IMG/VR virus record: IMGVR_UViG_3300037488_003116
Source: an uncultured virus (IMG/VR IMGVR_UViG_3300037488_003116)
Taxonomy: Duplodnaviria > Heunggongvirae > Uroviricota > Caudoviricetes
Reading direction: 5' to 3' (one strand)
DNA: 20,000 nt
Shown in pieces: positions 1 through 20,000 of the stretch (its first letter is position 1; the number at the start of each line of letters is the position of its first letter). The translations under genes were made by a program, and so were the position numbers. A model generated the notes under the pieces. That model was given only the letters and a program-made list of their open reading frames with translations. It did not search any database and was not told where the DNA came from.

Positions 1-453
1 TCCATTGTATTGTAGTGCCAAGTTGGACATCTCATTCCTGTCCAGACCTCCTGTGGCATCAGGCAGGATAACTCTGAGGACTGTCCTGCCACATTCCGTG
101 GCTTCGACGAACAGAACATCGAAGTTCTTGATAATGCCTGCGACCCGGTCCCCGGCAGTGTAGATCACTCCGTCTTTGATCTGATCGACGATGATGCCTA
201 AGATGTCATGAGCTACTTCTATTGGGAGAGGACAACAGATCTGCAGATTGAGATGCTTGCTGGTGACCTCTAGCCCATGTGTATGCATGTTGTACTCGTA
301 GGGGGCCTCGTCGTCGTCCATAACGAAGTGGACATACCATCCATACTTTACCATGTTCTCTTTCTCGCGGGCCTCCAGTGCATCACATACGGGCTTATCG
401 AGTTTGTCATGCTTGGGCTGATCTGGGTTAGGCCCTATTATTTTTCGATTCAT
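1..453 (-). CDS. DUF4262-like protein (runs off the window edge)
   Basis: Not in ORF track. ATG at 453 after AAGGAG; open to base 1: MNRKIIG...KYGWYVHFVMDDDEAPYEYNMHTHGL...HLNLQI...VLRVILPDATG. The GWxVxxV / TxGL / PDxxG pattern resembles DUF4262. Confidence 0.65.
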   Translation of the reverse strand, partial: MNRKIIGPNPDQPKHDKLDKPVCDALEAREKENMVKYGWYVHFVMDDDEAPYEYNMHTHGLEVTSKHLNLQICCPLPIEVAHDILGIIVDQIKDGVIYTAGDRVAGIIKNFDVLFVEATECGRTVLRVILPDATGGLDRNEMSNLALQYNG

Positions 454-3266: not shown

Positions 3267-3433
3267 TCGTCGTCCTCACAGAAATCTATCCCGGCAACCT
3301 CGCTTACCAGAAGTATCTGGGCTTCGACTTCTCTCTGTCCTTCTTCCGGCAGGGAGGTTATCGAGACGACCTTACCCGGAGCTACGAGGACGCGAGGGGG
3401 TGGATACAAATAGGGTTTTTCATCATCACTCAT
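3254..3433 (-). CDS. Small acidic hypothetical protein (59 aa)
   Basis: Not in track; ATGA overlap with the radical SAM stop; MSDDEKPYLYPPPRVLVAPGKVV...CEDDEWQL fills the gap. Confidence 0.65.
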   Translation of the reverse strand: MSDDEKPYLYPPPRVLVAPGKVVSITSLPEEGQREVEAQILLVSEVAGIDFCEDDEWQL

Positions 3434-4206
3434 ATTGCTATAGCCTCCTCTTGTTCGACATAAGGTTTGCTGTACCCCCTGATTATGTCAGGTAGGGATT
3501 GGGTCAGAACATTGCCCTTCGACTCCTGATCGGCTCGTCTGAAGGACATGTTGCAACTGCTGACCACGTTGCCGTTGGCTGCAACATATACCAAGTCACT
3601 AGAACTGTCAGGGAATGTGATTCTCCCGTTGTCTTCCTCGTCTATGACCCATGGACTCTGCTGTTCAGGGTCGTCAGTCATATACTTGTTGACTGCTCTA
3701 CCCTCTCTGAGAGGGTTATTGATTGGGTGAGTCCGACTGTTGAGGGCTAAATAAGGCCTCTCAGCTTCATAGACCCCTTCGTCGGGATCATATGCCCTAT
3801 AGAACTTATTGAGGTCAATTTTGTACAATTCCTCTGTATGGTACTGGTCCCTTGACACAGACAGACAGCATGCTTCCGGAGAATCCGCATAGGAATAGAG
3901 TCGGTCGACTGCTGCCATAAACTTTCGCCAGCCGTTCCGGGTCTTGCCGTTCGTTACAATGTAGAAGGCCCCGAAAGTGATCTTTTTCCAGAGACATTCC
4001 TGGAGGAACCTTTCTATGACCTCGGAGGCCAGGGATGGCTCACCGCCAGTGAAGGATATCATGCTTATGTATTCTACATCAGCCAGAGCTAGGCCAATGA
4101 TTTGGGGGGTCATAGTAATTTGTTGAGGGGACCCTCGGAGGCAATGGGCACATTTCATGTTACATTTTCTGGTAACCTCCAGGACGAGGTTTGGAATTTG
4201 AAGCAT
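3430..4206 (-). CDS. Radical SAM protein
   Basis: EVTRKCNMKCAHC (CxxxCxxC), FTGGEP, IVTNG, SVSRDQYH, C-terminal NGNVVSSC. ATG 4206 has an AAGGA SD; ATG 4221 lacks one. Confidence 0.92.
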   Translation of the reverse strand: MLQIPNLVLEVTRKCNMKCAHCLRGSPQQITMTPQIIGLALADVEYISMISFTGGEPSLASEVIERFLQECLWKKITFGAFYIVTNGKTRNGWRKFMAAVDRLYSYADSPEACCLSVSRDQYHTEELYKIDLNKFYRAYDPDEGVYEAERPYLALNSRTHPINNPLREGRAVNKYMTDDPEQQSPWVIDEEDNGRITFPDSSSDLVYVAANGNVVSSCNMSFRRADQESKGNVLTQSLPDIIRGYSKPYVEQEEAIAI

Positions 4207-4242
4207 ATCTTTTCCTTTCATGTGGGGGGAGGGGTGGACGGA

Positions 4243-6857: not shown

Positions 6858-7141
6858 CGGAAGTCGCCTTTCTTTTTTCGCAGAGCTTGAACCTTCTCAG
6901 AGACGTCATACTCCTCGTAAGAGATGCCAAGTATGAAACAAGCTTTATAGCGGATCCATTTCTCTGAGTCTATCCGGTGCATGGTGAATTCTGTCTCACT
7001 ATGCTTCCGGACATAGACCTCATAGTAGAACCCACCCCCAGCCCAAGACTTTGTCTCGGAGCTTGCTTTGACCTCGGCAAACTCGGACAGGTCGATGACA
7101 TGAAACCCGTGGATGGAATCTTCAACGATTATCTGCATCAT
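6854..7141 (-). CDS. Hypothetical protein
   Basis: Tiling with overlapping start/stop. Confidence 0.7.
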   Translation of the reverse strand: MMQIIVEDSIHGFHVIDLSEFAEVKASSETKSWAGGGFYYEVYVRKHSETEFTMHRIDSEKWIRYKACFILGISYEEYDVSEKVQALRKKKGDFR

Positions 7142-7797
7142 TCAAGCCCTTTCAGGAAGTCATTCACATCCTGGGCGGTCTCTAACGATATCTTCAGGTT
7201 GAGGACGTCATCATCACTTATCCGGGTAGTCCGCTCAGGCTTAGCCTCTGCCCGGGTATCGTCCTTTACCTTTTCTACAAGAGATTGTAGTTTTCCCCTC
7301 ACAAATTTCTTCATGAGGGCCTTCATCTCTTCCGGGGAGGGGGGAACAAAACTCTTCACGTCAGAGTGTATGACGTGGTCTTCTCCCGATGCATCCCTAC
7401 AGATAATATCCCATTCGTCCACAGCTCCATCCTCTTGGAGCATTTGGAGAAAACCTGTCAAATAGATTTCATTTTTCTGCAACTCGGCGACCTGTCCCTC
7501 CGTGGTTACGAGCAGTGCTCGGTCCTGTATGGCATATTTAATCTCCTCGATGTGAACTCCAGCCATCTGCATGCCGCTTAGGATGAAGTTCAGTGTGGCA
7601 TTCTTTGGCCCTACCCTGAACACGGTCTCTATTCCTTCCGGTAAGTGCCGGAGGATACTCCTCTTTTCATCTCTGGTCAGTTCCCGAGGGCAACGGAATT
7701 CCACTTCGAGAACTTCATCATCTTTACTTCGATTCGTGACTGAAGGCTCGACATTGAGCCCCACACACGCTTCATGTATGATCTCTTGCCACATCAT
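7138..7797 (-). CDS. Hypothetical protein (219 aa)
   Basis: AAGGA SD; C-terminal ISDDDVLNLKISLETAQDVNDFL. Confidence 0.8.
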   Translation of the reverse strand: MMWQEIIHEACVGLNVEPSVTNRSKDDEVLEVEFRCPRELTRDEKRSILRHLPEGIETVFRVGPKNATLNFILSGMQMAGVHIEEIKYAIQDRALLVTTEGQVAELQKNEIYLTGFLQMLQEDGAVDEWDIICRDASGEDHVIHSDVKSFVPPSPEEMKALMKKFVRGKLQSLVEKVKDDTRAEAKPERTTRISDDDVLNLKISLETAQDVNDFLKGLE

Positions 7798-8045
7798 GGT
7801 TTCCTTTCGTTTGTGTCCTTAGGGGAGTTTTCGATCCTTATCGTGGACTTCCCATCGCGATATACCTCAACACCATCTTCCATTGTTAATGTAAAGCCTT
7901 TCTTCTTGACATACTCCCGGAACATATTATGAATCTTGTCCGGGGAGGCATTACCAAATGACTTCTTCAGGCTACGCTTCAGCAACCACGTTCGTATGGG
8001 ATGAAATCCCTGTATGCATACGATAATTTTTCGTTTCATATTCAC
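7794..8045 (-). CDS. Basic hypothetical protein
   Basis: AAGGAG SD, tiling. Confidence 0.7.
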   Translation of the reverse strand: MNMKRKIIVCIQGFHPIRTWLLKRSLKKSFGNASPDKIHNMFREYVKKKGFTLTMEDGVEVYRDGKSTIRIENSPKDTNERKP

Positions 8046-10581: not shown

Positions 10582-10880
10582 AAGCCCTCCAGTTGTTCGA
10601 GATCAAAAGACTTCTGTTGAAACATGTCCAGCTCGTCCAGGAAATCCCGAGCCTCTTGCTCTTCGGGCCACATAGTCTTCAGGCCGAGCTTATTAAGGAG
10701 TGCCACGTATGTTGCCAGTTGTTCACCCCCTTTTTCTCGAAGCTTCTTTTCAGTCTCCATCATGGAAAAACGAAACGCATTGAACAGGGCTAAATCAGAA
10801 AGCTCTTTCTCAAGCGTTTTAATTCCTGCCGTTATCTTCTCATAGCGTTGAATTATGAACTCATTAAATTTCACTACCAT
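10578..10880 (-). CDS. Helical/coiled-coil hypothetical protein
   Basis: GGAGGG SD before ATG 10880. Confidence 0.75.
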   Translation of the reverse strand: MVVKFNEFIIQRYEKITAGIKTLEKELSDLALFNAFRFSMMETEKKLREKGGEQLATYVALLNKLGLKTMWPEEQEARDFLDELDMFQQKSFDLEQLEGL

Positions 10881-11334
10881 GATCACCCTCCGAGTTTAAG
10901 TCTTCCAGTTCTTCAATGGCCTCGGCCAGTACGTATTCCAATGCCGACAATTCATCCCGGTCCATAGCCTTACCCAGTTGATCCCGGGTCATGGCTATGT
11001 AGCTCTCCAGGTTGGCCTTCTTCTTTGCAATCTCCTGCACTGTCATGACACAGGATCTCGGGACTCTGATGCCATAGATGTTGGCATCCGAAAGAAGGAT
11101 GGACCAGTTCTGGATCGGTCCGTTCCCGATCCACTCGACTTTGCTCAGGTCGTCCACGACAAAATCATTCTGAGCAAGTTCTCCGACCGGGGTCCCGGCC
11201 TTAATTCTCAGCTCGTAAGGGGCAGGGAAGGCAGAGCTACTTGCCCTGAATTTGATGATAAGGTCGGTTGTAGTATGACCTCTGTCGGGGACTTCGATCC
11301 GTCTCGGTTCAGAATATACCAGTAATTCTCTCAC
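10864..11334 (-). CDS. Hypothetical protein
   Basis: AGGAGGAG SD + GTG. Confidence 0.8.
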   Translation of the reverse strand: MRELLVYSEPRRIEVPDRGHTTTDLIIKFRASSSAFPAPYELRIKAGTPVGELAQNDFVVDDLSKVEWIGNGPIQNWSILLSDANIYGIRVPRSCVMTVQEIAKKKANLESYIAMTRDQLGKAMDRDELSALEYVLAEAIEELEDLNSEGDHGSEI

Positions 11335-11344
11335 TGCTCCTCCT

Positions 11345-11632
11345 TTAGTTGAACTTTGGTTCGTAACCAGTAACGATAGGCTTCTGTTCGTATGTATGTT
11401 CTTCGAAACTACACTTCAAACATTTCCGTGTCCATCGCCTCTTCTGTACATCATGGAAGCTCGTCGGAGTCTCCCACGCATCGGAACCGTGTACTTCAAA
11501 TTTGTATCCTGAGGGCTCACGTATCGTCTCGGGATTGAAGAATGGCTTATCCCATGCATGGTTACAGTTACGCATACGTTCTTCATTCCTACGAATTTCT
11601 TCCTGCAACTGACGAATCTTTTCTGAACTCAT
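11345..11632 (-). CDS. Putative zinc-binding phage protein
   Basis: CNHAW ... WTRKCLKC; AAGGA SD. Confidence 0.75.
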   Translation of the reverse strand: MSSEKIRQLQEEIRRNEERMRNCNHAWDKPFFNPETIREPSGYKFEVHGSDAWETPTSFHDVQKRRWTRKCLKCSFEEHTYEQKPIVTGYEPKFN

Positions 11633-11645
11633 GGCTTTTCCTTTC

Positions 11646-11933
11646 TCATCCGTGGTCTACCTGACCACTGAAGTAGAAGTCGGTAGGGCCACTCGAAGAT
11701 AGAGCAGCCTCCGTGACAATCTCAATCTCTACCGGGACCTGGGCCCCGGGTACCCCACAGGGGCGGTCTTTATCAGCACAGCATATCGTGATTAGTTCCA
11801 CAGTCGCAGGCTGTGTCATTTCAATCCCCCGAAAGTGCATCGTTTTGGCGGAGGAATGTAAAGGGATGCTTGCTCTTAAGGGGCAGTCAATCTTCTGCCC
11901 TTCTTGGCTACAGAATACCAGGGATCGTTTCAT
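11646..11933 (-). CDS. Cys-containing hypothetical protein
   Basis: AAGGAGGT SD. Confidence 0.75.
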   Translation of the reverse strand: MKRSLVFCSQEGQKIDCPLRASIPLHSSAKTMHFRGIEMTQPATVELITICCADKDRPCGVPGAQVPVEIEIVTEAALSSSGPTDFYFSGQVDHG

Positions 11934-11944
11934 ACTAACCTCCT

Positions 11945-12409
11945 TTAATTTGCATTGGTGATAGTGGATTCAAGAAGAACGAACTGGTCCAGAGGTATGG
12001 GCTCACCCTCCGGCTTCATGATCACGGCATTGTTATAGTCGCTGTAATCGAAGATATAGTACGCACCCTTTCCGGCTTTCTCAACCTGCGACTCTATCCG
12101 ACGAGTCCCACCGTCAGTTACCTTGAGAGCAGGCCCGTTCCTTGACTGCCGAACGGCCACGTGGAATCGTTTGACCTCGACACTTCTCTGGACGCAGAAG
12201 TCTGAGAGCTTCTCGTATACCGCAATAGGGACATTGCCCATGTCCCAGCAAGGCTTAGGTGTCTCTGCCCCACCAAGAAATCGGGCCGGAGTCATGACTT
12301 CCTTACCAGGGTTTGAGAGGTTGACGGACCTCCATATCTTCACCCCCCGACCTGCTTCGATCCATGTGGTTATTTGGGTCACCGATGTCTGACTTATTTT
12401 GTATGCCAT
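11945..12409 (-). CDS. Hypothetical protein
   Basis: AGGT SD, tiling. Confidence 0.8.
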   Translation of the reverse strand: MAYKISQTSVTQITTWIEAGRGVKIWRSVNLSNPGKEVMTPARFLGGAETPKPCWDMGNVPIAVYEKLSDFCVQRSVEVKRFHVAVRQSRNGPALKVTDGGTRRIESQVEKAGKGAYYIFDYSDYNNAVIMKPEGEPIPLDQFVLLESTITNAN

Positions 12410-12653: not shown

Positions 12654-13150
12654 ACTTTCTCCTTGGTTATTTTTTTGATTTTGAAAATTGCAGTAATGAC
12701 GGGGCAGGAATATCCTGACGAAACATTGAATGTGTGTATGAATCTGACGTGATCAGGTAAAACGTCTCTCTTGAACGCAAATTTTCCAATTTCAAGAAGT
12801 CGCTGGGGAGATAGCACTTGCAGTTTAGTCGCCCATCCCTGGTCTCCTGTGCCAATTAAATCGCATAGCTTCTTATAATGCTCATAGTCCCATTCAGCGA
12901 GTCGATCAGAGTACTCACTTACACATTCGTGCGTCTTTGTGTTCATGACCTCGGGGAAGTCATCCGTTTCACATATTAACGCATCCTGACTGGCAGGATT
13001 AGAGCTACTGTATCTATATGTTTGTGGCCCAGCCTTCTCCAATCGAACCTCGTTGGCTCTTAGCTTTCGTGGAGGCTTTTCTCTCCTTTCTATATCCTCA
13101 AGAATTAGAATCTCTTCTTCATCCCAGCAGAAAAGTCTTCGTACAGGCAT
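12623..13150 (-). CDS. Hypothetical protein
   Basis: AAAGGAG SD; 175 aa. Confidence 0.8.
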   Translation of the reverse strand: MPVRRLFCWDEEEILILEDIERREKPPRKLRANEVRLEKAGPQTYRYSSSNPASQDALICETDDFPEVMNTKTHECVSEYSDRLAEWDYEHYKKLCDLIGTGDQGWATKLQVLSPQRLLEIGKFAFKRDVLPDHVRFIHTFNVSSGYSCPVITAIFKIKKITKEKVCPRKQSEKK

Positions 13151-13557
13151 CGTATCATCTCCTTTGTTAGTGCGCCAGTAGAACTATGTATCTCTTTTGA
13201 GAGGGAATGTCCACCTCTGTTATTATTTCAAGCCCAGCAGTACTCGATCGAAAGAAAAAGTTGTTCACACATATGAACTTACTCTTTTTAAATTGTTCAT
13301 TCAGATGAAACCACATATCAAGTATGCTGTGGTACGGGGATACACCTGATACACCCGGATATGAATAGGGGGCATGAATAGATCCCGTACCGGCGAGTTC
13401 TATTTGATGCCAGTATTTATCAATGCGGGGATCAGGGCTAAGAAAGCATACGCCATGTGAACCGTCTGACGTATACGCTTCAATCGCCGGAAGAACCCTG
13501 CGAGTTCTATCTATGAATTCTTCAAACGTCTCGACCATCGTATCATCTCCTTTGTTA
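13148..13557. repeat. 22-bp perfect direct repeat (13148-13169 and 13536-13557) bracketing one gene
   Basis: CATCGTATCATCTCCTTTGTTA twice; the minus strand reads TAA-CAAAGGAG-ATGATACG-ATG. Confidence 0.95.
13167..13538 (-). CDS. Hypothetical protein (123 aa)
   Basis: Start moved to ATG 13538 with AAAGGAG SD (MVETFEEFID...). Confidence 0.75.
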   Translation of the reverse strand: MVETFEEFIDRTRRVLPAIEAYTSDGSHGVCFLSPDPRIDKYWHQIELAGTGSIHAPYSYPGVSGVSPYHSILDMWFHLNEQFKKSKFICVNNFFFRSSTAGLEIITEVDIPSQKRYIVLLAH

Positions 13558-13578
13558 TTCGGTGAACCATATTGTTCC

Positions 13579-13815
13579 TTACCATCCCGTAGGTTGATAC
13601 TCGGGATGACCCGGCATATCTTCAATTTTTAGACGATCATTCAGATCTTTATAGCCTCCGGGAGCGCATTCAACTGCTCCTATTGAGCCTGAGTAAAGGT
13701 AATAGATTGCGAGGACATTCGGCTCATTTTCGTCCTTCCAGAAGACCCTTCCTTCCGTGCCGAGTGGCCAATCTGAATCGGCCTGTTTAACTGGTACCCA
13801 TTTTCGTTTGGTCAT
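13579..13815 (-). CDS. Hypothetical protein
   Basis: AAGGAG SD. Confidence 0.7.
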   Translation of the reverse strand: MTKRKWVPVKQADSDWPLGTEGRVFWKDENEPNVLAIYYLYSGSIGAVECAPGGYKDLNDRLKIEDMPGHPEYQPTGW

Positions 13816-13824
13816 GTTCGCTCC

Positions 13825-14070
13825 TTACTTGATTATGAATCTGTGACTGATGCCCTTTTTATCAGTGAATCCATACATCGTATGGGCATGATCGATCAGA
13901 TCCTTTGGATTATATTGTCGGTTCCCACGTACTGCAAAGTGCTTCCGGTAATACCCACCGGAGGGAATGTCGTCTGTCACGGGGACTTGCCGGACGAACT
14001 TACTCGCCTGATGCTTCTTAAAGACATTTGTTCGGTCAATGTGCACTGGTGCTCTCATAGTACAACTCAT
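13825..14070 (-). CDS. Basic hypothetical protein
   Basis: AGGAG SD. Confidence 0.7.
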   Translation of the reverse strand: MSCTMRAPVHIDRTNVFKKHQASKFVRQVPVTDDIPSGGYYRKHFAVRGNRQYNPKDLIDHAHTMYGFTDKKGISHRFIIK

Positions 14071-14105
14071 AGACGATTACTCCTGTTGGTTGTTAAAGCA
14101 AATGG

Positions 14106-14183
14106 TTAGAATGAACGTCGTCGGGATGTCTGGCTCGTGGCGCGAATGATTTTCTTATGAAGCTTCTTAAGGAATTTAAACAT
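14106..14183 (-). CDS. Basic 25-aa peptide MFKFLKKLHKKIIRATSQTSRRRSF
   Basis: CCCTAACTAAGGA leader/SD then ATG; fills the gap. Confidence 0.5.
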   Translation of the reverse strand: MFKFLKKLHKKIIRATSQTSRRRSF

Positions 14184-14203
14184 AAAGAGTCCTTAGTTAG
14201 GGT

Positions 14204-14247
14204 GAGAAGAAACCTGAGTGCCCCACTCAACGAATGGGCACTCAGGT
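14204..14247 (-). terminator. Probable intrinsic terminator
   Basis: 12-bp stem ACCTGAGTGCCC/GGGCACTCAGGT followed by TTCTTC on the minus strand. Confidence 0.55.
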
Positions 14248-14254
14248 ACGGTTG

Positions 14255-14455
14255 TCAGACTAAATAATCGGCATAATCGGCGAAGATCTCATCATCCTCT
14301 TCGAGTTCCGGCACTCCTAAGAGTGCCAGCAGTGTCGATCCACCCAGGGATCGGTGGGCATCTTCGTCACGGTCGCTTCCGAGGAACAGCTCCCAGTCTT
14401 GCTCTTGACTGGGGTCCGGCTTGATCATTTTCGGCATATAGTTAGGCTTGCGCAT
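14255..14455 (-). CDS. Small acidic hypothetical protein (66 aa)
   Basis: AAGGAG SD before ATG 14455; ...ELEEDDEIFADYADYLV. Confidence 0.7.
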   Translation of the reverse strand: MRKPNYMPKMIKPDPSQEQDWELFLGSDRDEDAHRSLGGSTLLALLGVPELEEDDEIFADYADYLV

Positions 14456-14483
14456 ACGAAACTCCTTCTGAAAAAATGTGGTA

Positions 14484-14514
14484 GGAAAGAAGGGAAGGGG
14501 TCTGTCCCCTCCCC
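14484..14514 (-). terminator. Probable intrinsic terminator
   Basis: GGGGAGGGG-acaga-CCCCTTCCC then TTCTTT just after the 14521 stop. Confidence 0.55.
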
Positions 14515-14520
14515 GTAACA

Positions 14521-15036
14521 TTACTTTATGATCACACCGTAGGCAGTGAGTACCGCCACGGCCTTGGTCACTACACGGGTCTTGGACTTCGGGTTGATGC
14601 CCAAGTCCTGACCGGTCAACTCTTTGACTCGGGCCAGGATCTGCGACGCCGACAGGCCCTGCAACGAGACCGTCTTGATCTCGATCACGGTCTTACCCGT
14701 AAGCAGATCGCAGGCATAACGATGAGCTTCTGGGCCTGCCCAGAAGAATTTGACTGCGGCCAGTAGCTTCTCCAAGGCTATCGGGTTCTGTCTCACCATC
14801 TGCCATACCCGGTACTTGGTCTGGTTGTAGATCGACCGGCCCAGGTTCTGCCTGAAGGCCTTGTCCCGGCCCTGGCCGGGAACGTTCTCGACGAGCGTCG
14901 AGTACACGACTGCATCGGCCGCGTCGATACGGGCTTTCACTGCCATGGCCTCTTCAGCCAGGGCGACTTCCCTGTTATGGGATTCGACAACGAGACGGGG
15001 AGCGGCTTTCACGAACGCATCACGCATTGTATTCAT
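14521..15036 (-). CDS. Hypothetical protein (171 aa)
   Basis: GGAGGT SD before ATG 15036 (MNTMRDAFVK...). Confidence 0.8.
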   Translation of the reverse strand: MNTMRDAFVKAAPRLVVESHNREVALAEEAMAVKARIDAADAVVYSTLVENVPGQGRDKAFRQNLGRSIYNQTKYRVWQMVRQNPIALEKLLAAVKFFWAGPEAHRYACDLLTGKTVIEIKTVSLQGLSASQILARVKELTGQDLGINPKSKTRVVTKAVAVLTAYGVIIK

Positions 15037-15175
15037 CTGATACCTCCATTTGGTTAGATGAATTAAAGAATTGGGAACTACGGGCTTACAACCGTCACCC
15101 CTTTCGTAGGGGTGGCCACATTGCAGGCCCATCAGGGCCTGAGTTCTGTGTTCGTCAGCGAAAGTAGCGCATCAA

Positions 15176-15193
15176 TTAGTTGCGAATAAACAT
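15176..15193 (-). CDS. Candidate micro-ORF MFIRN
   Basis: AACCCTATAACCACGGAGG-8 nt-ATG TTT ATT CGC AAC TAA. Confidence 0.45.
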   Translation of the reverse strand: MFIRN

Positions 15194-15267
15194 TCGGGGT
15201 GCCTCCGTGGTTATAGGGTTGCGGGGTTAAGATATAGGTGCTGAGATACCGGCAATTACATTACCCA

Positions 15268-15285
15268 TTAGCTCCGGGTAAGCAT
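15268..15285 (-). CDS. Candidate micro-ORF MLTRS
   Basis: AACCCTAACCACGGAGG-4 nt-ATG CTT ACC CGG AGC TAA. Confidence 0.45.
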   Translation of the reverse strand: MLTRS

Positions 15286-15336
15286 AGAGCCTCCGTGGTT
15301 AGGGTTAACCGTGCAGAGTGATGATGATGGGATTGA

Positions 15337-15654
15337 TTAAGGGAGAGAAGGAAAGTCACCGCCGATGACCCCGGTGATCCAGAGGCATTGGAGATGCTGA
15401 AGATTGATCTCCGGGATATCCACCACCACGGCAGAGATCCCGTACGCATTGGGGGAGGTCTTGCCCCAGTAGATCGGAGTGTCTTTGCCTGCCTCGGTGT
15501 CTACGAGATGGGCACATCCTGAAGACACCACCCGATCGGTTATGGTTGGAATATTGAGGACCTCATCCTCGATATCGTATTCCAAAGTGAAGACCACATC
15601 ATTGTCGAGATCAACTGAGTGAGAGGGCAGGGTCTCATAGACAATCTGAGGCAT
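15337..15654 (-). CDS. Acidic hypothetical protein
   Basis: AAAGGA SD; 105 aa. Confidence 0.8.
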   Translation of the reverse strand: MPQIVYETLPSHSVDLDNDVVFTLEYDIEDEVLNIPTITDRVVSSGCAHLVDTEAGKDTPIYWGKTSPNAYGISAVVVDIPEINLQHLQCLWITGVIGGDFPSLP

Positions 15655-15687
15655 AGTTTTCCTTTCGTTAGGGGTTCTGTTGGTTAG

Positions 15688-15867
15688 TTACACCTTCCTG
15701 TAGATATTGAAACCAATCTTGACCTCATCGGTGCCGGGCACCGTGATGTTACCTTCGGTCGACGAGATGACAACTGACTTGCCCGACGAGGACTTACCAA
15801 AGTCCTTGGTCAAGTCAACCGTGATCGTGAGGATTGGACCGTTCAGCTTGAACTCTACGTTCTTCAT
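15688..15867 (-). CDS. Small beta-rich protein (59 aa) of a conserved hypothetical family
   Basis: Not in track; AAGGAG SD; MKNVEFKLNGPILTITVDLTKDFGKSSSGKSVVISSTEGNITVPGTDEVKIGFNIYRKV. The G.SxSGK..IxST.GN motif is recalled from bacterial hypothetical proteins. Confidence 0.8.
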   Translation of the reverse strand: MKNVEFKLNGPILTITVDLTKDFGKSSSGKSVVISSTEGNITVPGTDEVKIGFNIYRKV

Positions 15868-15903
15868 ACAGACTCCTTGAAAAGGTTTATGGATTGTTAT
15901 TAA

Positions 15904-15958
15904 AGGGGACCCCCCATGACTCAGTCATGGGGACGCACCGGGCTTAACCCCTCCCGGT
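15904..15958. repeat. 55-bp double-hairpin direct repeat, copy 1
   Basis: 54/55 identical to 16871-16925. Confidence 0.97.
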
Positions 15959-16842
15959 TAGCTCTTTAAGCCGTGATCAAGTTCATCCATTTGAATAAAT
16001 GCGTACTTATTACGATATGCGTTGGCATACCGTTCTATGAACCCTTCTCGTTCTAATATCTGATTTTTCAAGGAATTAAAGAAATCTGAAAGGCGAGCGG
16101 TCTTTTTATTGTATCCGGGGTTATTAAAAATTCCTTTTCGTAGAAGGTTGTATTTATTTTGTTCTTCTAAAAGAATCTCCCTATGCTTTGATCTGATGTG
16201 CTCGGGGTGAAAATTGAATTCATAGCTGGCATAAGCAAGAGGAAAAGAAAATATGGGAAAAGAATCAATGCGTGTATCTATGCCTTCTTTGACGTCTCGA
16301 AAAGAATCTACATAACAAACTAATTCACCATCATATATACTCGTGACAATATTTATCTCATCATCTCCGTAGATAGCGGTACGTAATGCCAAACCCATAG
16401 TTTCAGTTGTTCTATGATAGGGTATCTTTATTGAATGGCTTGTATCATGGGACAGTTCGCCATTAACAAATATCAGATTGTCTTTGACGATGAATTCAAT
16501 TTCGATAGATCTATCGAGAATCGTTTCTAGACAAGGGCCATACCGTTTATCAAAGGCAGGAAAGAGACTTTTATTTACTAAAAGAGAATGGTTTAATATT
16601 TCTTCCATATTAAGGTCAACCCTTATTCCGAATGCGCATTTTTCATATTTGCTATCTCCTAATATTTCCAGTAGGACGAGAAAATTAAACGCCTTCCATA
16701 GAGCTATTATTCCGCAGGCAATAATTATAAATTTGTCGAGACCCTTATAGGCTCCTGTTACATGCAAGAAGATCATGACCATTATTCCTAAGATAAAGAA
16801 CAGGGGATAAGGTCTGAAATAACTTTTAATTTTTTCTTTCAT
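15958..16842 (-). CDS. AT-rich predicted membrane protein (294 aa, two N-terminal TM helices)
   Basis: AAAGGAG SD before ATG 16842; hydrophobic PLFFILGIMVMIFL and FIIIACGIIALWKAFNFLVLL; visibly lower GC than the flanks. Confidence 0.85.
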   Translation of the reverse strand: MKEKIKSYFRPYPLFFILGIMVMIFLHVTGAYKGLDKFIIIACGIIALWKAFNFLVLLEILGDSKYEKCAFGIRVDLNMEEILNHSLLVNKSLFPAFDKRYGPCLETILDRSIEIEFIVKDNLIFVNGELSHDTSHSIKIPYHRTTETMGLALRTAIYGDDEINIVTSIYDGELVCYVDSFRDVKEGIDTRIDSFPIFSFPLAYASYEFNFHPEHIRSKHREILLEEQNKYNLLRKGIFNNPGYNKKTARLSDFFNSLKNQILEREGFIERYANAYRNKYAFIQMDELDHGLKS

Positions 16843-16870
16843 ACACACTCCTTTGAATTGAATATTGTTT

Positions 16871-16925
16871 AGGGGACCCCCCATGACTGAGTCATGGGGA
16901 CGCACCGGGCTTAACCCCTCCCGGT
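16871..16925. repeat. 55-bp double-hairpin direct repeat, copy 2
   Basis: AGGGGACCCCCCATGACT(G/C)AGTCATGGGGACGCACCGGGCTTAACCCCTCCCGGT. Confidence 0.97.
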
Positions 16926-16933
16926 AATGGTAA

Positions 16934-17341
16934 CTATTGCATGCGGTCTAGCATCTTGGCGTATGCCGTCACCGTCCTATCATATTTTTTTGCCTCATAC
17001 GTGTATGCGTAATTGGCTGGGTCACTCTTGGCCAAGTATTCATACAGAGTACATTTTGCCTGGGCCAATTCCTTAATCGCCCGATAATACGTGGCCTTAT
17101 TAAGGGGTTCGAGTTGCCCCCGAAGCTTTTCACACCGAGCCCGGGCCTGGATCACATGACCCTTAAGGATAAATAAGGAGTCTGTCTTCTCAAGCTCCGC
17201 CGATATTGAATCGGTCAGAGCAATGGTTTGTATGACCCCGCCGACATCGACCTGAGTCAGAGCTGGGACCTGGGCATGGGACACGACTGAAAACAGGACG
17301 GCCATCAGAAACAGAGCTATAATCACTGAGAAATTTCGCAT
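16934..17341 (-). CDS. Secreted protein with Sec signal peptide (135 aa)
   Basis: AGGAG SD before ATG 17341; MRNFSVIIALFLMAVLFSVVSHA-QV signal peptide. Confidence 0.8.
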   Translation of the reverse strand: MRNFSVIIALFLMAVLFSVVSHAQVPALTQVDVGGVIQTIALTDSISAELEKTDSLFILKGHVIQARARCEKLRGQLEPLNKATYYRAIKELAQAKCTLYEYLAKSDPANYAYTYEAKKYDRTVTAYAKMLDRMQ

Positions 17342-17473
17342 AGGATCGATCTCCTGAGAGGGTTGGGTGAAAGAGTTAGGGGGAAGGAAAGAGTGGTTGT
17401 TAGCGCCCTTCCCCCTGGTTTGTGTGAATTTATATCCTACTGTATTCTTTACGTCCCCAATAGGCAATGGTCT

Positions 17474-17515
17474 TCACGAGCCATCCAGGGACGGACTACT
17501 GAAGAAATGTATCAT
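17474..17515 (-). CDS. Candidate micro-ORF MIHFFSSPSLDGS
   Basis: GGAG-6 nt-ATG ... TGA. Confidence 0.35.
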   Translation of the reverse strand: MIHFFSSPSLDGS

Positions 17516-17572
17516 AAATTTCTCCGGTATGGCTATGGAAGGAACTTGAATGCGCTAGTCCCTTCCTGATGA

Positions 17573-17706
17573 GATGACTGTTTATTACCGTCATACGGAT
17601 TGTGGCAGTCATCATACCACACCTGTGTATGCCACAGGATTCGCTGGGCTATGTTCTGGATGTGGTGCCCAGCCCCACATCCAGCAGGTCCCGTATATTT
17701 ACGTCC
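17573..17706 (-). ncRNA. Predicted structured RNA element A (two tandem pseudoknots)
   Basis: Complementary pairs 17656-65/17675-84 with 17643-49/17667-73; 17601-07/17630-36 with 17573-78/17608-13. Confidence 0.55.
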
Positions 17707-17731
17707 TACGGGTTACTGACAACCTATCGGC

Positions 17732-17767
17732 TCAGTATGACGAGGACGACCTACCGGTTTTGTTCAT
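17732..17767 (-). CDS. Candidate micro-ORF MNKTGRSSSSY
   Basis: AAGGAGGT-4 nt-ATG ... TGA. Confidence 0.45.
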   Translation of the reverse strand: MNKTGRSSSSY

Positions 17768-17795
17768 GTCTAACCTCCTTCATGGGTTAGCGGGG

Positions 17796-17891
17796 TTACG
17801 ATTTGGTCGTTTTGCGCTTGGCCCGTTTCTTGGGCCGCTGACGATGTCGCAGGACACCGTCCGATGACTCGTAGTCAGAGGGGCGATGCAT
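17796..17891 (-). CDS. Basic 31-aa peptide MHRPSDYESSDGVLRHRQRPKKRAKRKTTKS
   Basis: GGAGGT SD + ATG. Confidence 0.5.
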   Translation of the reverse strand: MHRPSDYESSDGVLRHRQRPKKRAKRKTTKS

Positions 17892-18003
17892 AGGATACCT
17901 CCGGATAGTGGTTTATGGAAAAGCCAATGTAGGGTACGCTCCCTAAATCAAGGATGTCTCCTTGACTCGGCTCAGGACATTCGGGTTCAAAACAATCTGG
18001 CAT
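17875..18003 (-). CDS. Small acidic protein (42 aa)
   Basis: AAGGAG SD before ATG 18003 (MPDCFEPECPEP...). Confidence 0.5.
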   Translation of the reverse strand: MPDCFEPECPEPSQGDILDLGSVPYIGFSINHYPEVSYASPL

Positions 18004-18061
18004 CTGTTCTCCTTGGCTAAGGTTGAAGGAAAACCCACTGGCCTTATCAGTGGGCATAGAG

Positions 18062-18631
18062 TCAGGACGTAAGAGCCATGATGGCCTTATAATCCTTTTT
18101 GTCGTCGGCAGAGTCCGGCCCGTCTAGGGGCTGGAGCTCTAGGATAGAATCAAGAGGAAGGGTCATGGCCTGCCCATCCTTGAAAGTCGTCGGTTTGAAT
18201 ACCAGTGGTAGCCCACATATGGGGCATTTTTTTCCCTCGGTTCCGGTCACGTCTAAATGAAAAGGGCATGTCCATTCCCCCTCGACTGGGAGCCAACGAG
18301 ACACCTCCGCCTTACTCAAGGTTTTTGCTTCATCAAATATCCCGTCATCACCCATAGGTGCAAACGAGGATTTTCCGAAGCCGTAGCCGTGAGCTATGGC
18401 GCACAGCAGATAGAGCCGGGGTGTAGTGCCCTTCTTGGCCACTACTGATTGCGTGCTGGTGAAGGCCCACCAGGTCGGGGTGGCATCCATGACCTCTGTG
18501 GTCACGGAGTACTTGCTGGTCTTCAGGAGCATCGGCCATGGTGCTCCTTTGATCGTTTTTACGGTCTTCTCTGTCATGATCGAGAAAACCGTACCCGCTT
18601 TAAGAACGGGCACGATATGAGATACGTCCAT
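18062..18631 (-). CDS. Hypothetical protein with an internal heavy-metal-binding (HMBD-like) motif
   Basis: AAGGAG SD; WTCPFHLDVTGTEGKKCPICGLPLV resembles YTCPMHP...PGKCPxCGMxL. Confidence 0.8.
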   Translation of the reverse strand: MDVSHIVPVLKAGTVFSIMTEKTVKTIKGAPWPMLLKTSKYSVTTEVMDATPTWWAFTSTQSVVAKKGTTPRLYLLCAIAHGYGFGKSSFAPMGDDGIFDEAKTLSKAEVSRWLPVEGEWTCPFHLDVTGTEGKKCPICGLPLVFKPTTFKDGQAMTLPLDSILELQPLDGPDSADDKKDYKAIMALTS

Positions 18632-18644
18632 ATTTTCTCCTTTT

Positions 18645-18955
18645 GCCCGTACGTGGGCCTCATGGCGGGCATCGGTGGATTCTTATCCACACTACAGCCC
18701 GCGACGGTCACGAGTCAACATTGACCCGTGACTGCCCGCACCTAAGCCGGGTGCGGTTCGGCAGGGGCGGTATGTTTAAGGTCCCCCACATTGGGACCAG
18801 TCGTGCCACCCTCATCTTACCCCTGCATTGGGGTGGCTCGGACATACCTGCCGTATGTCAGGGCGAGCACCTCGGATACTCCATACGCCCGGTGCCCACG
18901 TATGGAGAATTAACGTCCCCGGAAACCCTGCTTAGGTTGTCTCGGTTGGGACATA
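18645..18955 (-). ncRNA. Predicted structured RNA element B (about 310 nt; two pseudoknots plus several hairpins)
   Basis: Almost every segment has a complement, e.g. 18879-87/18899-907 with 18865-71/18891-97, and 18805-11/18831-37 with 18761-67/18820-26. Confidence 0.6.
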
Positions 18956-19145
18956 ATTTTATACTTACATATCACGTCCTACGGTTCGGAATGACGTCAT
19001 GCCATTCTTTTTCGAAGGATCAAACCTCCTCGGTTAGGGTTTAGTCACGTCCTTGTGACTCTTATGGGGTTTCGTACCCACGTCCCGGCGACCCGTCTTA
19101 GGTTCCGGACGTCCAGTGAGTATTACCGTCCCCACTGGCGGGACC

Positions 19146-19160
19146 TCAACACAATAACAT
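19146..19160 (-). CDS. Candidate micro-ORF MLLC
   Basis: TAAGGAGG-4 nt-ATG TTA TTG TGT TGA. Confidence 0.4.
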   Translation of the reverse strand: MLLC

Positions 19161-19205
19161 CGGCCCTCCTTAAGGTTAATGGTTAGGCCCCCGACACGGG
19201 GGCGG

Positions 19206-19424
19206 TTAGTCGTCGTCGCGGGGGGACAGACTGTCCCAGCAACGATCTTCGACCGTGTCCATATCGACGTCTTTAACCTCCTGACCGTTTTCGCTGACGG
19301 TCAGAATGTTCAGTTCCCCCGGCTCGGGGGGAGAGTCGAAACCAAAGGTAAATGGTTTCGATCCAAAGTCCACACTGAACTTGACGTCTAATATTCGCTC
19401 GTCAATAACTATTTGAGTGTGCAT
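19206..19424 (-). CDS. Small acidic phage-type protein (72 aa)
   Basis: AAGGAGG SD before ATG 19424; ...DSPPEPGELNILTV... Confidence 0.8.
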   Translation of the reverse strand: MHTQIVIDERILDVKFSVDFGSKPFTFGFDSPPEPGELNILTVSENGQEVKDVDMDTVEDRCWDSLSPRDDD

Positions 19425-19435
19425 TGTCCTCCTTT

Positions 19436-19820
19436 GCCCCACGACTTGGAACGGGGGCTGTGCATTACAGGGGAGAGCTACTCCCCTGTCCTCTGCACTG
19501 ACTGATTAGCTAACCTCAGTCAGGTTTAATGGTTTATCCGTACCGGCTCATTGCAAGAGGGGCCGGTCAGACTTGCCTGTTACGTTGTTGCTGGTTAGGT
19601 AGCCTGTCGATTTTACCCCCTCGACAGACCCCCTGCGGTCAGACCGGGAGGGACGCTCCCGGAGCTAGGCACGGGCTATCCGCATAGCCCTACTTATAAC
19701 ACCCTGCACACAAGCCATTAATTATGCAGGTTTATTGTGGGGGTTTATAGACCATATGGGTTATAGTCTCCCTTGCTTTTCGGATCAAACATAATCAGGA
19801 TAAACAAGGCAACCTGATTC
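19436..19820 (-). ncRNA. Predicted structured RNA element C (hairpin-dense, about 380 nt)
   Basis: No ORF of 60 aa or more; about nine stems including ACAGGGGA/TCCCCTGT, CTGACTGA/TCAGTCAG, ACCGGC/GCCGGT, CTGTCGA/TCGACAG, CCGGGAG/CTCCCGG, GGGCTAT/ATAGCCC, AATCAGG/CCTGATT. Confidence 0.55.
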
Positions 19821-19847
19821 TGTTCGGGTCTAATTTTTTCAGGGTGA

Positions 19848-19877
19848 TTAGACCAACACCCTTGTCATTACTTTCAT
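19848..19877 (-). CDS. Candidate micro-ORF MKVMTRVLV (an in-frame ATG at 19943 would give 31 aa)
   Basis: GAGGAGGTG-tat-ATG ... TAA. Confidence 0.45.
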   Translation of the reverse strand: MKVMTRVLV

Positions 19878-19957
19878 ATACACCTCCTCTAGGTTGTTAA
19901 AGGTTAGCACCTTAACGACCCATAGGCGGTGAATGAATGACATTCAATCCTGCTTAC

Positions 19958-19989
19958 ACTATAAAGAAAAAGTAAGTGAGTAAAGTCAA
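19958..19989 (-). promoter_or_regulatory. Possible sigma70-like promoter for the leftward transcript
   Basis: TTGACT (19989-84) and TATAGT (19963-58) in AT-rich DNA, but the spacer is 20 nt. Confidence 0.3.
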
Positions 19990-20000
19990 TTGCTTTTTCT

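Follow-up and report, generated by a model that had tools for sequence, protein, structure and literature searches.

Background

Very short reading frames that act through the ribosomes they attract are, to our knowledge, known from a few bacterial operons only. In the espADB mRNA of enterohaemorrhagic Escherichia coli (EHEC), ribosome occupancy at a strong site before a six-codon mini-open reading frame (mini-ORF) is described as protecting the message from RNase E (PMC8708949). The same report describes ribosome binding at a strong site as protecting or boosting the message in LEE4, LEE1 and axe-txe, as presented there (PMC8708949). The six-codon mini-ORF of EHEC LEE4, along with the mini-genes of two codons in LEE1 and axe-txe, gives the closest working analogues of the locus studied here. 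This locus consists of two tandem mini-genes, referred to as unit 1 and unit 2, on the minus strand of the last 20 kb of a 77,877-nt record of an uncultured Caudoviricetes virus (IMGVR_UViG_3300037488_003116; CheckV completeness 48%); the whole 20,000-nt stretch is called the window throughout. The units lie in a 300-nt gap between two genes without a family name, gene A and gene B, they are maintained in relatives as short frames led by a ribosome-binding site, and they are followed by a 71-nt element that is probably a variant of the twister ribozyme.

Toxic mini-genes, as they are presented in PMC2490762, act only where Pth is limiting or the host is Pth-defective. For twister and hammerhead ribozymes, clustering close to phage genes is reported and a part in processing polycistronic transcripts is considered possible, their purpose being described as still undefined (PMC6765202). 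Keyword searches of the literature returned no report of mini-ORFs combined with a twister in the operon of a phage, which is not proof of absence. The present locus sets mini-ORFs beside a twister candidate in a phage early operon.

Tandem mini-genes with duplicated leaders

The initial annotation, made from the sequence of the window, had placed twin pentapeptide mini-genes at 15176-15308, and this span was correct: both units exist on the minus strand, at 15307-15268 and 15220-15176. Each is built of a leader, AACCCT(AT)AACCACGGAGG, followed by ATG, four codons and TAA. Their parts are as follows.

15286-15307, minus strand: leader of unit 1, TAACCCTAACCACGGAGGCTCT, with GGAGG at 15294-15290, 4 nt ahead of the ATG
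15268-15285, minus strand: mini-gene of unit 1, MLTRS, ATG CTT ACC CGG AGC TAA
15194-15220, minus strand: leader of unit 2, AACCCTATAACCACGGAGGCACCCCGA, with GGAGG at 15206-15202, 8 nt ahead of the ATG
15176-15193, minus strand: mini-gene of unit 2, MFIRN, ATG TTT ATT CGC AAC TAA

A 13-nt core, GCCTCCGTGGTTA, is an exact direct repeat with a spacing of 88 nt, and 92 nt separate the two ATGs. Aligned locally, the ~90-nt units scored 40 at best, over the leader and the ORF and as far as TAAT, as compared with a mean of 17.9 (standard deviation 3.6, maximum 32) for 500 mononucleotide shuffles; the similarity of the two units is beyond every shuffle. The exact 11-mer AACCACGGAGG occurs in 3 copies in the record, the third of which (7497-7507) is intragenic and shows no further likeness to the units. 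A third leader-like copy, AACCCTAACCGAGGAGGT, was found at 19041-19024 without a usable ATG. The features by which a mini-ORF is recognised, that is, a strong Shine-Dalgarno site, a start, few codons and a long untranslated stretch, are present here as GGAGG, five codons and the 187-nt gap that runs from gene A to the twister-like element.

Since this leader type also precedes ordinary long genes, such as AAACCCTAACAAGGAGGCTCA ahead of a 145-aa gene (1331-1309), it looks like an effective, ordinary translation start region that is not peculiar to the units. The pattern search proposed in the initial annotation was run with the leader pattern on viral_contigs; it gave 22 matches, approximately the number expected by chance, with 9 ahead of long ORFs and none ahead of a mini-gene, and revealed no homologous locus. 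A consensus scan of the gap found no promoter and no minus-strand terminator. The leader was also considered as a promoter and set aside; a conserved -10 box is present in neither unit. In many genes that follow gaps, a -10-like box is succeeded by AACC 5-7 nt later and by the ribosome site ~10 nt further, and across the whole record AACC lies at most 45 nt upstream of 52 of the 173 called starts (e.g., window 1345-1309 and record 76588-76544).

Maintenance of the frames in relatives

Two protein relatives of gene B, at 66-67% identity, were found, and their alignment recovered four metagenome loci (L007-L010). Further haplotypes, denoted by X numbers, were obtained by comparing contigs of public runs with the window; four of them were rebuilt by script from difference tables, and two rows of the tables for the first four runs were not shown. 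X4, X7, X8 and X12 provided only fragments near the units. Parts of the locus occur in ~20 public runs, and no RNA run was listed among those with this stretch. The relatives come from few runs, labelled as freshwater, lake-water or sediment metagenomes.

L007 and L008 are one haplotype, at which both units are kept, with MLTRN (AGC>AAC) as unit 1 and MFIRR (ATG TTT ATC CGT CGC TAA) as unit 2. L009 has a single unit of six codons, MIPFRR (ATG ATT CCC TTC CGT CGC TAA), in which a unit 1-type leader is joined to a unit 2-type spacer and frame, and L010 has neither gene A nor either unit. Among the run haplotypes, unit 2 is MFIRN with TTT>TTC in X10, MNVRIRY (ATG AAC GTG CGT ATT CGT TAC TAG) in X1 and X2, and MNVRIRY with CGG as the second Arg and a TAA stop in X3; a partial loose end in X12 fits the MNVRIRY class. 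The copy number of the units is therefore 0 (L010), 1 (L009) or 2 (others).

In unit 2, GGAGG, the ATG and the stop are all kept in 7 of 7 versions, with spacers between GGAGG and ATG of 8, 8, 8, 8, 7, 7 and 4 nt. Its length is 5 codons in the window, X10 and L007/L008, 6 in L009 and 7 in X1, X2 and X3. Thus, the fixed length of five codons proposed in the initial annotation did not hold, and L009 and L010 lack the pair of units, a result that by the annotation's own standard refutes its inference in part; what the loci with unit 2 keep is the short frame with its ribosome site and its stop.

Three indels affect the frame itself, each a multiple of three: +3 in L009, +6 in the MNVRIRY class, and the removal of 3 nt across the stop, which restores a TAG (X1/X2 compared with X3). 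In the spacers on either side, about 2 of 11 are multiples of three (Fisher one-sided p = 0.027, with events counted by hand and dependent on the alignment). The comparison of synonymous with non-synonymous changes, which the initial annotation had suggested, came out in favour of the frame: inner-codon changes between close alleles are synonymous in 4 of 4 cases (TTT/TTC, ATT/ATC, CGC/CGT and CGT/CGG; p ~0.006 if a change is synonymous with a probability of 0.28). Variation in the five copies of the first set affects 7 of 12 body columns and none of the six ATG and TAA columns (p = 0.025).

The tail [I/T/F]-Arg-x-stop is common to all alleles, with its Arg written as CGG, CGC or CGT and its last residue variable (S, N, R or Y). 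A T follows the stop in five of the seven versions (TAAT), and the other two read TAGA. A test for relics of gene starts found MLTR, MFIR, MNVRI or MIPFR at the head of the units themselves and of chance short frames, and at the head of no real gene of the record or of L007-L010.

Unit 1 is kept as a frame in all six sequences that cover it (window, L007/L008, X1, X2, X3 and X10), and is letter-identical to the window in X1, X2, X3 and X10 (with the ATG of X1 read from a second contig of that run). For five of the six, X1 being cut off there, the ribosome site of unit 1 was rebuilt; the leader in runs X1 and X2 reads AAGGAG at 7 nt spacing, so that a ribosome site is still present. Among the relatives the leader varies as CCACGG, CTACGG, CCATGG and CCCAAGGAG, with the ribosome site always kept. 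As the whole block 15223-15286 is without a listed difference in the X1, X2, X3 and X10 contigs, unit 1 gives no power for a frame test, and its near-invariance could equally stem from a hairpin of -9.5 kcal/mol that contains it. In the contigs of X10 and X1, the 107 nt between 15305/15306 and 15413, comprising the end of gene A and the C-rich spacer, are swapped for ~380 nt of other sequence, and the 3′ junction coincides with the start of the unit 1 leader.

In sum, the units are maintained as short frames led by a ribosome site, unit 2 in 7 of 7 versions and with frame-preserving indels, and, as the initial annotation had inferred, are not in simple decay. The numbers are small and point one way: the frame and the tail appear constrained, and the length (5-7 codons) and copy number (0-2) free. 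The initial idea of selection on peptide length or sequence is thus retained for the frame and the tail, and given up for a length of five codons.

A probable twister variant downstream of unit 2

The initial annotation missed a 71-nt element that begins 25 nt after the stop of unit 2, and this element is the most informative new fact about the locus.

15080-15150, minus strand: twister-like candidate of type P5 with a P3 hairpin, 71 nt, predicted cut C15123/A15122

The element is near-invariant in the window, L007, L008, L009 and L010, a constancy that contrasts with the adjoining gene B (67% protein identity) and with the absence from L010 of everything upstream. When searched as a short stretch, it gave a full-length alignment to Rfam RF02684 (Twister-P5) with 29.8 bits and no non-standard pair, and the L010 copy gave 31.4 bits. 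As both scores are below the gathering threshold of 37.6, membership in RF02684 is not established by score. A weak twister-P1 match to the element was superseded by the full-length Twister-P5 alignment.

The architecture is nevertheless that of the type: P2 (CACA/UGUG), P1 as a closed hairpin of 7 pairs and P4 (ACG/CGU) follow each other in type-P5 order, 14 of 14 pairs are standard in 4 of 4 sequences, and the minimum-energy fold of the segment alone reproduces P1, P2 and P4. In the core, AAUG and AAGCC are present, CAA stands at the UAA of the family, which places C for U before the cut, and the L4 loop, GUUGUAAGCC as against the consensus GUCcCAAGCC, ends in AAGCC. Twisters may tolerate a C in place of the U before the cut. 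With pairs assigned by hand, all 4 sequences show both predicted pairs of T1 (GC with AAGCC); of the three predicted pairs of T2, L007 has all and each of the other three sequences has 2. The T2 strands, ACU/UGU (ACA/UGU in L007), differ from the consensus GGG/CCC on both sides. In total, 95% of the cells pair, as compared with 25-40% in controls with the partners slid. The variable P3 hairpin, a helix reported in 78% of twisters (PMC6154101), shows one compensatory C-G to U-A change, and since the four sequences are 94% identical, covariation statistics are uninformative. A strict descriptor, run on both strands of the 77.9-kb record, matched this element only, and the ribozyme pattern had no match in viral_contigs. 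Judging from these features, 15150-15080 is a probable twister variant.

A second twister of type P5 was identified at 19440-19497 (minus strand), with 41.4 bits as compared with the threshold of 37.6, 15 nt before a start codon at 19424. It was the only one found by the family search of the whole record; at the gathering threshold, Rfam gave nothing on the rest of the record or on L007, L009 and L010. The ribosome site of the 72-aa gene that starts at 19424 sits just behind this twister.

The RNA of the gap

Apart from the units and the twister-like element, four features were recognised in the gap.

15308-15336, minus strand: C-rich spacer, TCAATCCCATCATCATCACTCTGCACGGT, within a C-rich, G-poor stretch, kept in L007 and L009
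15257-15284, minus strand: hairpin of -9.5 kcal/mol, whose 5′ arm holds the start codon and codons 2-4 of unit 1
15227-15268, minus strand: predicted 13-codon frame, MGNVIAGISAPIS, coupled to unit 1 by TAATG
15155-15172, minus strand: MRYFR frame, an ORF after unit 2

A C-rich, G-poor composition is that of Rho loading sites. The C/G ratio is 2.42 in the 78 nt of 15345-15268, at the 99.4th percentile of the minus strand of the record, and 2.15 in 15255-15178, at the 98.8th percentile of the record. The gap is not notably AU-rich, so that the AU-rich leader of LEE4-type mini-ORFs is not found here.

The hairpin of unit 1 is the only conserved RNA structure associated with the leader frames, with all 10 pairs kept in L007 and the single change sitting in the loop. 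A weak stem at unit 2 (CGN with NCG) shows one compensatory change and is broken in X3 and X10. Neither the gap scan nor the folds revealed a conserved terminator/antiterminator or start-masking structure joining unit 2 to gene B.

Both additional frames named in the initial annotation are present in the window, and they fared differently in the relatives. The 13-codon frame coupled by TAATG loses its stop in L007, which extends it to 18 codons, and is absent in L009. MRYFR is kept nowhere else, since its ATG reads ATA in 6 of 6 relatives (X1, X2, X3, X10, L007 and L009), and it is most likely a chance ORF. A predicted frame ends 16-30 nt before the ribozyme candidate in every version, this frame being unit 2 in six versions (17-30 nt) and a 59-aa gene in L010 (16 nt).

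Strong-site micro-ORFs elsewhere in the window

Within the 2,113 nt of non-coding minus strand of 14071-20000, we counted 5 ATG frames of at most 13 codons behind a strong site, starting at 19877, 19160, 17767, 15285 and 15193. The expectation was 0.19, with a maximum of 3 in 2,000 resamplings, which corresponds to a ~25-fold enrichment.

The frame at 19877-19848 (minus strand) has nine codons, MKVMTRVLV, and a TAA, stands behind AGAGGAGG ~75 nt past a promoter-like site, and heads a ~430-nt untranslated leader that ends in the 19440-19497 twister. At the end of the record (19957-20000, minus strand) there is a promoter-like TTGACT, 17 nt, TATAGT, and L010 carries at 1441-1685 four tandem copies of a promoter-like sequence, ~65 nt apart and of ~85% identity. 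The four-codon MLLC (ATG at 19160), behind AAGGAGG, opens a 574-nt gene-free, hairpin-rich stretch (18632-19205, minus strand) that comes after a terminator-like hairpin, matches no Rfam family and includes the leader-like copy at 19041-19024. At 17767 (minus strand), the 11-codon MNKTGRSSSSY also stands behind AAGGAGG. Its first eight codons are near letter-identical in two relatives (L008 1-200 and L009 700-860), in which the tails differ, the frames have 12 and 15 codons and the ribosome site is weaker; this region may have been conserved as RNA and not as a peptide. Finally, a five-codon MSRYG with TAA (19551-19534, minus strand), 36 nt before the twister at 19497, has no ribosome-binding site and is likely due to chance, though its geometry echoes that of 15176.

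Flanking genes and the rest of the record

15337-15654, minus strand: gene A, of 105 aa and without a family name, TAA stop at 15339-15337, from the ORF list
14521-15036, minus strand: gene B, of 171 aa and without a family name, ATG start at 15036

Neither gene A nor gene B matched Pfam or PHROG. Gene A has 25 representative relatives at E<=0.001, 13 of them at E<=1e-10, and is present in L007, L008 and L009; gene B retains its start MN.. in its relatives of 66-67% identity. No close relatives of gene A, gene B or a 538-aa ATPase-like protein were found in viral_contigs, alignment queries for the flanking proteins gave none in viral_contigs or genome_contigs either, and blastn of 13000-17000 against deposited phages gave no match. 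A tRNA scan of the window found none.

Nearly all genes of the window are on the minus strand, and few of the larger ORFs scanned showed a named family. The named genes encode a radical-SAM-like protein, a DUF4262 protein, a sigma-factor-like protein, an FtsK/SpoIIIE-like ATPase and the 538-aa ATPase-like protein (PHROG 8638, E 4e-110), at positions given jointly as window 3430-4221 and 1-453 (both minus strand) and record 6944-7855, 10762-11952 and 56234-57850. A 25-codon, very basic frame, MFKFLKKLHKK... (window 14106-14183, minus strand), with a similar sequence in L007 (2911-2997), is probably a real small protein gene.

Possible roles of the units

The explanation that we favour, tentatively, is that the translated units act in cis, by keeping ribosomes on a gap exposed to Rho or to nucleases up to the ribozyme. 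That the units are translated at all is, on its own, likely. This explanation is drawn from the kept ribosome site, ATG and stop, the in-frame indels, the synonymous inner codons and the invariant ATG and stop columns; from the excess of micro-ORFs, the working leader type, the C-rich gap and the frame that ends 16-30 nt before the ribozyme; and from the lack of a promoter or minus-strand terminator in the gap together with the precedent of EHEC espADB.

A single transcript would carry gene A, both mini-genes, the ribozyme and gene B. Ribosomes would load at unit 1 and open its hairpin, may pass to the overlapping frame of 13-18 codons, and would then reload at unit 2, and their occupancy would mask rut-like Rho-loading RNA, or RNA sensitive to nucleases, until the structured ribozyme has been transcribed. 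A cut at C15123/A15122 would leave the gene A mRNA with an end in the P1 hairpin and the gene B mRNA with a 5′-OH leader, and the [I/T/F]-Arg-x tail with TAAT may serve fast and clean termination with less harmful drop-off of peptidyl-tRNA. Beyond the sequence features and their conservation, we infer every step of this mechanism.

Several points weigh against it. Docking of ribosomes needs no particular peptide, while the synonymous-only pattern and the kept Arg suggest a role that depends on sequence, so that the constraint on the tail fits ribosome occupancy only loosely and ad hoc. In EHEC, the mini-ORF effect is described as needing neither translation nor the peptide (PMC8708949). The start codon of unit 1 is within the -9.5 kcal/mol hairpin, where initiation should drop, and the units are dispensable, as L010 has none and L009 only one. 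The Rho step presumes a host with Rho, and translation and co-transcription are predictions from sequence. The frame statistics come from few events and few independent haplotypes, four of them rebuilt from the difference tables, and with the 2 last-codon changes, both non-synonymous, the synonymous count becomes 4 of 6 (p = 0.056). The ribozyme candidate is below the Rfam threshold and has C in place of U ahead of its predicted cut.

In an alternative account, the units are leftover gene starts without a function, made and duplicated by recombination at the junctions of modules in a mosaic phage and merely tolerated. Their number varies from 0 to 2, the hybrid unit of L009 is the outcome expected of unequal crossing-over within AACCACGGAGG, in X10 and X1 a mosaic junction falls at the 5′ edge of the unit 1 leader, the units are present or absent together with the gene A cassette, the relatives are a patchwork, and the leader is like the ordinary start regions of this and other phages. 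Relics, however, should suffer frameshifts and lose starts or stops as fast as spacers do, which was not seen; no parent gene starting with MLTR, MFIR, MNVRI or MIPFR was found in the record or in L007-L010, and strong-site micro-ORFs are ~25-fold enriched. We regard relics as unlikely, yet as more probable than the other rivals.

What speaks most for a nascent-peptide sensor is the constraint on the tail. In such a sensor, the peptides would use their tail to pause the ribosome at the stop or close to it, in response to a condition such as a drug, a metabolite or translation stress, and the paused ribosome would determine whether termination by Rho occurs or in what way the ribozyme folds. 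The inner-codon changes are 4 of 4 synonymous and the Arg is written by three codons, the in-frame indels keep a C-terminal I/F-Arg-x while the N-terminus changes (MF-, MIP-, MNVR-), and the stop was recreated after the 3-nt deletion that separates X1/X2 from X3. Basic residues ahead of the last position and a TAAT stop favour efficient termination and not pausing, however. The last residue is free (S, N, R, Y), the allele classes differ strongly in sequence and length, the stop is 17-30 nt ahead of the ribozyme and thus outside the ribosome footprint, and unit 2 is linked with gene B by no conserved terminator/antiterminator or start-masking structure; gene B itself is an orphan and not a resistance gene, as the downstream gene of such leaders would be. 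A precedent for such short sensors is MsrDL, whose very short leader is described as blocking release-factor accommodation (PMC10314930). A sensor of this kind appears rather improbable here.

More speculative still is a union of the two ideas, in which the mini-genes and the twister would be one translation-gated switch of RNA processing: the nascent [I/T/F]-Arg-x peptide would report the state of the host ribosomes and decide whether Rho aborts the transcript or the ribozyme cuts it into separately stable messages. We give such a switch only a slim chance; if it were true, bacterial and phage twisters would gain their first defined biological job.

The two remaining explanations fit less of the evidence. 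In one, the repeated leader would be a functional nucleic-acid site, for binding of a phage protein or for pairing, e.g., with ACGGUUG of the ribozyme, and the frames would be incidental. The leader is indeed the most exact part of the repeat (13 of 13), its third likeness, with no usable ATG, lies at 19041-19024, the minimum-energy fold pairs GCAACC of unit 2 with GGUUGU of the ribozyme, and no difference is listed for 15223-15286 in the X1, X2, X3 and X10 contigs. On the other hand, the leader sequence varies among the relatives where the ribosome site does not, the ribozyme is unchanged in the leaderless L010, no promoter was found in the gap that an operator could serve, and frame-preserving indels would be left unexplained, which makes such a site very unlikely. 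A strong TAAT stop context favours normal termination, and this counts against a bar-like trap, in which the units would release peptidyl-tRNA, tie up host tRNAs and so disturb host translation. We consider this trap the least credible and highly improbable, for although the length is within the 2-8 codons studied for toxic mini-genes and an Arg codon or pair (CGT CGC TAA in L007 and L009) comes ahead of the stop, an arrangement shared with the AGAAGAUAA test mini-genes, peptidyl-tRNA is described as not building up with normal Pth and the effect as dropping steeply from 4 to 5 codons (PMC2490762), and the last codon, which sets the trapped tRNA, is the least conserved position.

Comparison with known systems

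Lambda bar is a two-codon frame, AUG AUA UAA. As far as PMC2490762 describes them, lambda bar and the experimental toxic mini-genes resemble the present units in being phage-borne and led by a ribosome site, with few codons and a TAA, the experimental ones also with an Arg near the stop. The units differ from bar in having 5-7 codons, and not two, and a variable last codon.

The MsrDL leader reportedly has six residues, and the erm, cat and toiL leaders are likewise said to be very short upstream frames with an active nascent chain. The units are like MsrDL in the very short upstream frame, in a system where the nascent chain is described as mattering above the free product (PMC10314930). Unlike the units, MsrDL and the erm, cat and toiL leaders control a downstream resistance or toxin gene via defined alternative RNA structures or through Rho, and neither a conserved switch of that kind nor such a gene was seen at this locus.

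The downstream element shares with twisters of type P5 (Rfam clan CL00120, RF02684) P2, a closed P1, AA after the predicted cut, the GC of T1, an optional P3, P4 and an L4 that ends in AAGCC. It differs from them in its score (29.8-31.4 bits as against 37.6), in the C before the predicted cut and in its divergent T2 strands. Since a twister variant below the threshold can be recognised by its conservation and architecture, ribozymes of phage operons may be under-counted. The natural variants at hand, in which the number of units is two, one or zero, the peptides fall into three classes and the ribozyme is unchanged, would make direct experiments informative.

The mini-ORF of LEE4 and the mini-genes of LEE1 and axe-txe share with the present units a strong site with a very short frame, a long untranslated stretch, a polycistronic mRNA and a proposed action in cis, as far as that report describes them (PMC8708949). 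Unlike EHEC LEE4, the present locus belongs to a phage, holds a tandem duplicate in RNA that is C-rich and not AU-rich, lies upstream of a ribozyme candidate and not directly ahead of a regulated gene, and shows signs of constraint on the tail of the peptide.

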